From Centroscyllium fabricii (Eukaryota): a stretch of 64,000 bases of DNA. The notes below the pieces were generated by a model. That model did no database searches and was not told the DNA's origin. It saw nothing but the letters and a program-made list of their open reading frames with translations. Position numbers and translations under genes: made by a program. Below, piece by piece: positions 15,116 through 18,100 of the stretch (position 1 is the stretch's first letter; each line of letters starts with the position of its first letter). The stretch lies in assembly GCA_051313645.2 (NCBI GenBank), contig JBNRSN020000015.1:42842001-42906000 (forward strand), given 5' to 3'.

Positions 15116-18100
15116 CTGTAAGACAACAGAGAAAGGATGTAAAACATGGAGCAAACTTCACAATCCAAGCTAGGCTAGAATGAAATTATACCATCTATGT
15201 CACAAAGTTGGCCTGCTCAAGAAAGTAGTACAATCTGAAATGTCCACAACAGATTCTTTGCTGCTCCAAGCCTGAAAGACAGCAGACAATACTAAAATGA
15301 CAGAAAATGCCGGAAAAACTCAGCAGGCCAGGCAGCATCGGTGGAGAGAAATAGAGTCGACGTTTCGGGTTCGGACCCATCATCAAAACTGGAGAATGAA
15401 ACACAGGCAGGGGGGGGGGGGGGGGTGGGGGGGAGGGTGGAGGGTGGAGAGGGACAGGAACAAAGAGAGACAGCACAGAGAGAAAAGACTGAGATGAGAT
15501 TCTGTGGACAGGAGACAGTAGTTGATGAGGTGTGAAAATGCTGGCAGAGCAAGAAGTGGCTGCCACGATAGAGAAAAGAAAGGCCAAATAAACATTGTGG
15601 ATAAAAAGAGGTAAAAATATAATGAGGCCGGAGTTATGATCTGAAATTGTTGAACTCGATATCGAGTCCGGAGGGCTGTAAAGTGCCTAATCGGAAGATG
15701 AGGTGTTGTTCCTCGAATTTACGCTGAGCTTCTGAGGAACAATGCAGCAGGCCAAGGACAGAGAGATCAGAGGGAGAGTGAAATGGAGAGTTAAAGTGAC
15801 AGGCGACCAGGAGTTCGGGGTCCCCCTTACGGACAAAGCGGTCACCCAATCTGTGTTTGGTCTCCCCAATGTAGAGGAGACCACATAGTGATCAGCGAAT
15901 ACAGTATCTTAGATTGCAAGAAGTATAAGTAAATCGCTGTTTGACCGGGAAGGGGTGTTTGGGGCCCTGGATGGTGGGAAGGGGGAGGTGTAAGGGCAGG
16001 TGTTTCATCTCCTGCGATTGCATGGAAGACCTTTCCGTGCAATCGCAGGAGATGCAACACCTGCCCTTACACCTTCCCCCTTCCAGGGCCCCAAGCACCC
16101 CTTCCAGGTCAAACAGCGATTTACTTGTACTTCTTGCAATCTAGTATACTGTATTCGCTGCTCACGATGCGGTCTCCTCTACATTGGGGAGACCAAACGC
16201 AGATTGGGTGACCGCTTTGCGGAACACCTCCGTTCAGTCCGTAAGGGGGACCCCGAACTCCTGGTCGCCTGTCCCTTTAATTCTCCGCTTCACTCCCACT
16301 CTGATCTCTCTGTCCTTGGCCTGCTGCATTGTTCCTCAGAAGCTCAGCGTAAACTCAAGGAACAACACCTCATCTTCCGATTAGGCACTTTACAGCCCTC
16401 CGGACTCAATATCAAGTTCAACAATTTCAGATCATAATTCCGGCCCCATTATATTTTTACCTCTTTTTATCCACAATGTTTATTTGGCCTTTCTTTTCTC
16501 TATCGTGGCAGCCACTTCTTGCTCTGCCAGCGTTTTCACACCTAATCAACTACTGTCTCCTGTCCACAGTCTTTTCTCTCTGCTGTCTCTCTTTGTTCCT
16601 TTCCCCCCCTCCCCGTGTTTTATTCTCCAGTTTTGATGAAGGGTCCGAACCCGAAACGTCAACTCTATTTCTCTCCACCGATGCTGCCTGGCCTGCTGAG
16701 TTTTTCCAGCATTTTCTGTTGTTATTTATGATTTCCAGCATCTGCAGTATTTTGCTGTCAAACAATACTAAAACCTGCTCGAGGCACCAATAATTCAGTC
16801 AACTCCAGATCCTTTTGTCCATCTTCCAATTCCCTTTTGAAAGTTATTATTGAATCTGCTTCCATCACCCTTTCAGGCAGTGCATTTGAAATTATCATAA
16901 CTCGCTCTGTAATATTTTCTTCCCCGTCACCTGAAATCTGTGTCCTCTGGTTACCGACCCTGCTGCTACTGGAAACAGTTTCTCCTTATTTTCTCTCTCA
17001 AAAGTCTTAATAATTTTGAACACCTCTATCAAGTCTCCCCTTAACCTTCGCTGCTTTAAGAACAACCCCAGTTTCTCCAATCTCTCCACGTACCTGAAGT
17101 CTTTCATCCTTGGTGCCATTCTGCTAAATCTCCTCTGCACCCTGTCTAAGGCCTTGACATCTTCCTAAAGTGTGGTACCCAAAATTGGCCACAATACTCC
17201 AGCTGGGGTCTAACCCGTGTTTTAATCACTCCACCATTGGCAGCCATTCAGCTACTTCGGGCCAAAGCTCTGCAATTCCCTCCTAATACTCTCTGCCTCT
17301 CTAACTCTCTCTCCTCCTTGAAGACGCTCCTTAAAACTTACCTCTTTGACCAAGCTGTTCCAATATCTGTTCTAATGTTTCCCACATTACAACAGTGACT
17401 ACACTTCAAAAAGTACTTAATTGGCTGTAAAGCGCTTTGAGACGTCCGGTGGTCGTGAAAGGTGTTATATCAATGCAAGTCTTTATCTCCTTATGTGGCT
17501 TGGTGTCAAATCTTGTTTGATAACGCTGTGATGTGCCTTGGATCTTTTACTACATTAAAGACGCTCTCTAAATGCAAGTTGTTATTCTTAGTCCACCCAC
17601 TAAACCCAGCATGTAACAGCTTCCCAAATGACTAGTTGAGAAAGGTGGTGAGTACTTGATCCATACAGATCAGGAAAGTCCCACATTGGATTCCTGCTAG
17701 CGTGGCAACTGGGGCATTGCAATTTGCCTCAGGGAGGGGAAAATCAATTTTTCTCCTATTCGCTACCAATGACCCCTGCTGGAAAGTGGTTGTATATGGA
17801 TATTGGACAAAAAAAACTGGATTGCAGTAAACTTCAACGCATTCTATGGTTCAATGATCTTGACAATACTCACCTCACTGGATGAGGTGCCAGAGGATGC
17901 CTGCTACCACAGGGGGAAAACAAACTGGCAATAAATAACCTCATCTATAGAAATACTGCCTAAACCCCATGTTGTATAAATATCCCATCACCAGCTCCAC
18001 ACCAAATCAATGTTGTATAAATATCCCCTCCCCAGATCCAACAACTACTTGCGTTTATATATGTAGTAAAACGTTCCAAGGTGCTTCACAGGAATTTTAT

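Follow-up and report, generated by a model that had tools for sequence, protein, structure and literature searches.

The palindrome described here is a real, single-event insertion that is ordinary for its class; it is the dead scar of that insertion and not a TIR-like element capable of moving. It lies in a stretch of 64 kb, referred to below as the window, and it probably represents a truncated two-armed insertion of a Penelope-like element (PLE), in which one tailed and one tail-less arm within a single target site duplication (TSD) go back to reverse transcription (RT) primed at both target nicks. The two-armed PLE layout as such is already known; what is added here is the empty site and a set of counts by which the mechanisms can be ranked.

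Layout of the palindrome and its site

Two inverted arms, about 95% alike, lie at 15298-16027 (minus strand) and 16029-16759 (plus strand) of the window. Aligned with each other, they give 636 matches, 32 mismatches and 6 indels (1, 18, 8, 13, 2 and 37 nt), and a 5-nt gap (16028-16032) separates their perfectly paired parts. This reproduces what a sequence-only reading of the same DNA had described, namely two 5'-truncated copies fused head-to-head around a 5-nt loop at the Cys linker, with the tails facing outward and no RT in the unit. The head-to-head junction falls just 5' of this linker, CNRRRCNTC. The features are the following (here and below, the cited papers are represented by those parts of their text that were accessible).

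15029..15115, minus strand: last coding exon of GTF2H1 (TFIIH p62, residues 522-548; E=3e-8)
15284..15297, plus strand: left TSD copy (exact 12 nt at 15286-15297; 14-15 nt with one mismatch)
15298..16027, minus strand: left arm, a 5'-truncated PLE 3' end without tail, ending at about ATG+84
15298..16027, minus strand: lesions of the left arm, comprising an 18-nt deletion, a stop codon, a 1-nt frameshift and an expanded C-tract
15355..15390, minus strand: candidate minimal type-I hammerhead-like motif of the left arm, U3 variant (from the sequence, compared with PMC4209133)
15634..15990, minus strand: broken GIY-YIG endonuclease remnant of the left arm
16028..16032, no strand: junction GACCT, in which ACCT is the right arm's own 5' end and one G is unexplained
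16029..16759, plus strand: right arm, a 5'-truncated PLE 3' end with tail, ending at ATG+124, with deletions of 8, 13 and 2 nt
16138..16437, plus strand: GIY-YIG remnant of the right arm (open frame without ATG; linker out of frame)
16629..16664, plus strand: candidate minimal hammerhead-like motif of the right arm, holding the family's ORF-start ATG at 16636
16725..16759, plus strand: one-sided PLE tail of about 35 nt, between the 3'-end classes +84..97 and +119..133
16760..16773, plus strand: right TSD copy (exact 12 nt at 16762-16773)

With respect to the ends of the unit, both literally read CTGTCA, as had been pointed out before, but only by coincidence: counted from the pLTR ATG, the left arm runs to about +84 and the right arm to +124, and the final A of the right-arm CTGTCA is part of the TSD. 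Since each complete unit of the family pairs a tailed with a tail-less arm (see below), the two CTGTCA ends do not represent homologous positions, nor is the unit a TIR element. The single 12-bp TSD that had been proposed around the pair is present as an exact 12-nt direct repeat, ACAATACTAAAA, at 15286-15297 and 16762-16773. However, the duplication is probably 14-15 nt long with one G>A difference (CAGACAATACTAAAA / CAAACAATACTAAAA), as suggested by the empty-site contigs, in which CAG precedes ACAATACT, and by the family mode of 14 nt; the best-scoring version has 15 nt and one mismatch.

The empty orthologous site is found in contigs of organism G (X19 and X20, which are one sample) and organism C (X8), where the left flank joins 16762 directly, with a single target copy and neither arm. 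One X19 record of 1242 nt covers 14801-15285 and resumes at 16762. Both arms are absent together in these two organisms, neither of which shows a single arm, and no second TSD or duplicated target was found at the palindrome centre. Together with the one outer TSD, and with the TSDs in 32 of 33 sibling units (see below), this bears out the earlier view that the pair was inserted as one unit. The left junction is crossed by contigs of organism F, possibly the very individual that was assembled, and these show no difference over 530 nt.

To judge by their reading frames, neither arm is able to encode an endonuclease, and both GIY-YIG remnants are dead. The right arm had been said to keep an open GIY-YIG frame, and indeed a frame of 147 aa from stop to stop (15994-16437) matches PF01541 with 24.5 bits against a cut-off of 22.6 and retains the two Cys between GIY and YIG (CCHH). 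However, this frame has no Met, the CNRRRCNTC linker lies in another frame owing to an 8-nt deletion, and a Pro stands in place of one His. In the left arm, the 18-nt deletion noted before was located at 15835/15834, and a TGA at 15894-15892 and a 1-nt frameshift further disrupt the endonuclease.

The hammerhead that had been assigned to each arm stands only as a minimal motif recognized by eye, with the core boxes, an extra nucleotide after A9, a G10.1-C11.1 pair and a palindromic helix III. Position 3 of the core, opposite G8, is U instead of C, and an Rfam search in gathering and E-value modes returned no hammerhead, but only unspecific matches to miRNA hairpins. The U3 is family-wide (TTGATGA in 86 of 109 arms, among the top ten variants listed), and the minimum free energy structure of the monomer differs from the hammerhead fold.

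The host gene is GTF2H1, of which two minus-strand exons were identified in the window, at 53800-53964 (residues 116-171) and 15029-15115 (residues 522-548), such that the palindrome lies inside the gene, 170 nt upstream of the last-exon acceptor. Because the penultimate exon was not located, its placement in the last GTF2H1 intron is only the most likely one. GTF2H1 pre-mRNA is predicted to carry a duplex of about 660 bp that would end 170 nt from the last splice acceptor. Elsewhere in the window, long G-rich minisatellite-like arrays with a 37-41-nt unit (2164-4322 and 17958-19780) yield spurious long ORFs. A high-copy repeat fragment, apparent from the depth table, occupies 16816-17235, starting about 45 nt to the right of the TSD; we take it to be a LINE-like 3' end.

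The family and its two-armed units

In the host genome of 7.2 Gb, the right arm as query gave 5015 first-look candidates, the best of them 93-96% identical. The source is an autonomous EN+ Penelope-like family, classed by its CX4CX2C linker with the Neptune/Nematis type: CNRRRCNTC is a linker of the CX2-5CxxC type between RT and EN, which is a Neptune/Nematis feature (PMC8557442). RT lies upstream of EN in one ORF in the longer copies L091, L092 and L104, and RVT_1 matches in longer copies (E=3e-5 and 6e-4) stay below the Pfam cut-off. L104 is a full-length partial tandem that forms a pLTR, and its ORF starts at the ATG in hammerhead stem II and continues through the tail and beyond. The sequence CAGYAYTTT is present in two copies spaced by 38 nt (+72 and +110), one shortly before each of the two 3'-end classes described below (L104:2722-2768; window 16707-16753).

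The window also contains PLE fragments that are older and more diverged, with 78-86% identity to the right arm, at 4573-4666, 24476-24956 and 27037-27116. Some PLE insertions in the genome have been duplicated together with their flanks, segmentally or in tandem (L013, L019, L020 and L021 on C113, at a spacing of about 30 kb, and L003 and L149 on C734). Furthermore, a short self-complementary motif, TGACGATACGTCA, adjoins PLE junctions at three unrelated loci (flanks of L043, L096 and L133) and is possibly the end of another element.

The survey started from 180 loci, collapsed to 142, which are best-scoring matches and not a random sample. An automated rule found 43 head-to-head adjacencies and 1 tail-to-tail adjacency among them. 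Complete head-to-head units with a junction gap below 40 nt make up 33 of the 142 loci, a proportion that overstates the rate, because the loci are best matches and two-armed units are twice as easily matched. Left out of the 33 were L107 (arm cut at +51), L108, L132 and L133 (complex or read-through tandems), L149/L155 (paralog of L003), and L070, L161, L168, L186, L198, L219 and L225 (arm broken or nested); L110, L163, L223 and L194, with gaps over 40 nt, were scored apart.

A TSD score of at least 8 was reached by 32 of the 33 units, against 7 of 1056 mismatched-flank controls, and the length of the TSD ranges from 11 to 18 nt with a mode of 14 nt (15/32). All 33 units combine one tailed and one tail-less arm. 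Accordingly, the 3' ends of the 66 arms are bimodal, with the tailed arms ending at +119 to +133, the tail-less arms at +84 to +97 and none between +97 and +119. Units split by later insertions (L163, L223 and L110) follow the same rule and have an outer TSD, that of L110 being 8 nt only; the only tailed/tailed pair, L194, has no shared TSD.

At the 5' side, the tail-less arm reaches further in 21 of the 33 pairs and the tailed arm in 12, a bias without statistical significance (p=0.16). There are more near-symmetric pairs than expected, with 4/33 within 10 nt and 7/33 within 25 nt (p=0.003 and 0.002 by permutation, 0.026 and 0.012 under a uniform null). The focal unit is the most symmetric of the 33, its tailed arm being 4 nt longer, and the tail-less arm is the longer one in three of the seven near-symmetric pairs. 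Junction positions are unit-specific and scattered from ref 1541 to 3011, and no junction recurs. BLAST overlaps at the junctions are rough, and an automated walk for exact microhomology was set aside since it was thrown off by point mutations near the junctions (-6 for the focal unit). At four junctions (L171, L176, L224 and L105), inserts of 17-29 nt resemble copies of other parts of the element and look like the products of end-joining with template switches.

Single insertions lack the tail in 13 of 50 cases, several of which have clear TSDs, and the +90 site is therefore able to prime alone. By eye, inverted stubs of 6-20 nt with the opposite 3'-end type were recognized in the "single" insertions L091 (~2160-2182), L044 (~2101-2110) and L086 (~664-671), each between the TSD and the 5' truncation point.

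Over 28 pairs, the two arms of a unit resemble one another more than they resemble other copies, and they have minority alleles in common (Wilcoxon p=0.002 and 0.0008). For the focal pair alone this test for a common source is not significant, as it lies at the 30th percentile for distance and shares 1 non-CpG minority allele. A subfamily-diagnostic indel before the hammerhead is identical in 20 pairs, differs by 1 nt in one and is unscored in 12; since the queries favoured single subfamilies, this concordance is weak support.

Priming from both nicks and its rivals

For the nicking, priming and joining steps, we infer the following course. The GIY-YIG endonuclease would cut the two strands with a stagger of about 14 nt. 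RT primed by one of the 3'-OH ends would then begin at the downstream start site (ATG+~124) and give the tailed arm, and RT primed by the other would begin at the upstream one (ATG+~90) and give the tail-less arm. Both cDNAs would stop early, near the Cys linker, and be end-joined head to head, fill-in would yield the TSD, and the arms would decay independently after insertion. More tentatively, both cDNAs may derive from one RNA molecule.

That both nicked strands had primed RT was one of two routes suggested earlier, and it is upheld by the tailed/tail-less rule (33/33), by the longer tail-less arm in 21 of 33 units, and by the extension of both strands in vitro. For a PLE of Anolis, both strands were nicked and extended, and RT started at two internal sites that delimit the tail (PMC11167929). 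That study also predicts a dimer; in its in vitro system no difference in start site was seen between the strands, and the accessible text does not demonstrate joined two-armed products (PMC11167929). Some observations speak against priming at both nicks. The near-symmetric excess is not predicted by two fully independent RT runs, and at the focal locus the 4-nt excess of the tailed arm forms the loop, which is the geometry of a fold-back. The excess of near-equal arms may point to one shared RNA or, for a minority of units, to fold-back.

One could go further and speculate that the PLE RNP forms an asymmetric dimer by which a single RNA is copied twice, with each half priming from one nick at one of the two CAGYAYTTT motifs; we regard this as possible, though less than an even bet. 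If it were true, two-ended priming would be the default route, "single" insertions would be those whose second arm was abandoned after 0-20 nt, and a near-perfect palindrome would result if the two halves ran up to one and the same break in the RNA.

The other route suggested earlier, fold-back of the cDNA, would have a tail-primed cDNA fold and copy itself, with the hairpin resolved by the endonuclease at the tail boundary. The focal geometry (a 5-nt loop and a tailed arm 4 nt longer) and the excess of near-symmetric pairs fit this model, and the tail has been ascribed to EN-mediated resolution of an intermediate (PMC8557442). However, a copy is never longer than its template, and simple fold-back therefore cannot be the general route, given that the longer arm is the tail-less one in 21 of 33 pairs overall and in three of the seven that are nearly symmetric. 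A strand-fixed cut would moreover couple the tail with arm length, where the observed split is 12:21, and the focal junction has no self-complementarity or microhomology (CGGC precedes ACCTTT in sampled copies, GAAG at the locus). We thus consider fold-back unlikely. Self-priming on an antisense or read-through template, with a palindromic intermediate integrated as a unit, was put forward for PLEs of Adineta on the basis of palindromes found at inverted junctions (PMC3846280), and the shared source of paired arms is compatible with it. Against it, junctions are scattered from ref 1541 to 3011 with none recurring and the focal one unique, and the model alone does not produce the rule of one tailed and one tail-less arm, which makes it an improbable explanation.

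The long terminal inverted repeats and the TSD give the appearance of a palindromic MITE or TIR-like element moving as a unit, and mimicry of a TIR transposon had been suggested, but the resemblance is one of look only. The 20-nt junction pattern occurs once in the 7.2 Gb with 1 mismatch allowed (copies with two or more mismatches in these 20 nt would escape), the ends differ by the tail of about 37 nt, sibling junctions are all distinct and there is no transposase, so that such an element is very improbable here. From so abundant a family (5015 first-look candidates), one might expect two independent insertions of which one happened to land at the 5' end of the other, and the distance between the focal arms is not significantly smaller than among random copies. 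Yet one outer TSD without a central one, 43 head-to-head adjacencies against 1 tail-to-tail in 142 loci, and discordant tails in 33 of 33 units leave this coincidence scarcely credible. An assembly or library fold-back artefact has in its favour that the centre is spanned by no read or contig and that run X15 has no contig on the right junction, which may be a filter effect. However, the arms differ by 32 substitutions and 6 indels, and outside CpG sites each diverges from the majority of the sampled copies by about 2%, mostly through private changes, as would be expected of two copies decaying separately; such separate decay argues against an assembly fold-back. Since the organism F contigs also cross the left junction without a difference over 530 nt, and the TSD agrees with the empty site, an artefact is very improbable.

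Comparison with known systems

An inverted 5'-truncated copy with a one-sided tail of 30-40 bp and a TSD is known for EN+ PLEs (Fig. 2 of PMC8557442; Pen2a_Av in PMC3846280), which supports the earlier statement that PLEs can form inverted structures. Palindromes at head-to-head junctions were noted in PMC3846280, and closely spaced pairs of hammerheads on opposite strands in PMC4209133. The route by which PLEs make the inverted layout is called unresolved in PMC8557442; we found no published two-primer account for PLEs in the open-access literature, and the accessible parts of PMC9977147 and PMC8969392 add nothing on mechanism. As far as the published EN+ PLEs are described there, they share with our units the head-to-head copy, the tail at one end, the single TSD, a hammerhead-like motif in the pLTR (a candidate one here), heavy 5' truncation and partial tandems (here L104). 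In contrast, the focal unit lacks a full-length body and its arms are near equal (4 nt), the TSD of 8-10 nt in Adineta PLEs compares with a mode of 14 nt here, and the one-sided tail, found "often" in published PLEs, is present in 33 of 33 units.

The closest parallel in vitro is PAc (Poseidon_Ac) of Anolis (PMC11167929). In both systems the ORF begins at stem II of the hammerhead, the tail is delimited by two classes of 3' ends some 35 nt apart, and the predicted cut is similarly placed, 25 nt after the ATG here and 26 in PAc. The two differ in the CX4CX2C linker, which is present here and lacking in Penelope/Poseidon, and in the start sites, which here lie at +90 and +124 and at neither of which tail-region folding predicted a stable or significant stem-loop (z -0.3 and +0.5). 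The rule seen in all 33 units, the lack of a fixed link between tail and arm length, and the common source of the arms connect the genomic pattern to the two RT start sites known in vitro. The counts thereby yield a direct prediction for the existing PAc assay.

In twin priming of L1, both target strands prime RT as well, and an inverted 5' part results within one TSD. There, the second primer anneals internally, such that the 3' end is not duplicated. Two-strand priming and an inversion inside one TSD are common to both cases; here, however, both arms begin at the 3' end of the element, and the whole unit is therefore a palindrome.

MITEs and other TIR DNA transposons likewise have inverted terminal arms and a TSD. 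In contrast to these, the focal unit has not been copied as a unit, has asymmetric ends and consists of retroelement sequence, and the TSDs of its siblings vary from 11 to 18 nt. For annotation, this means that two-armed PLE units should not be labelled TIR elements.
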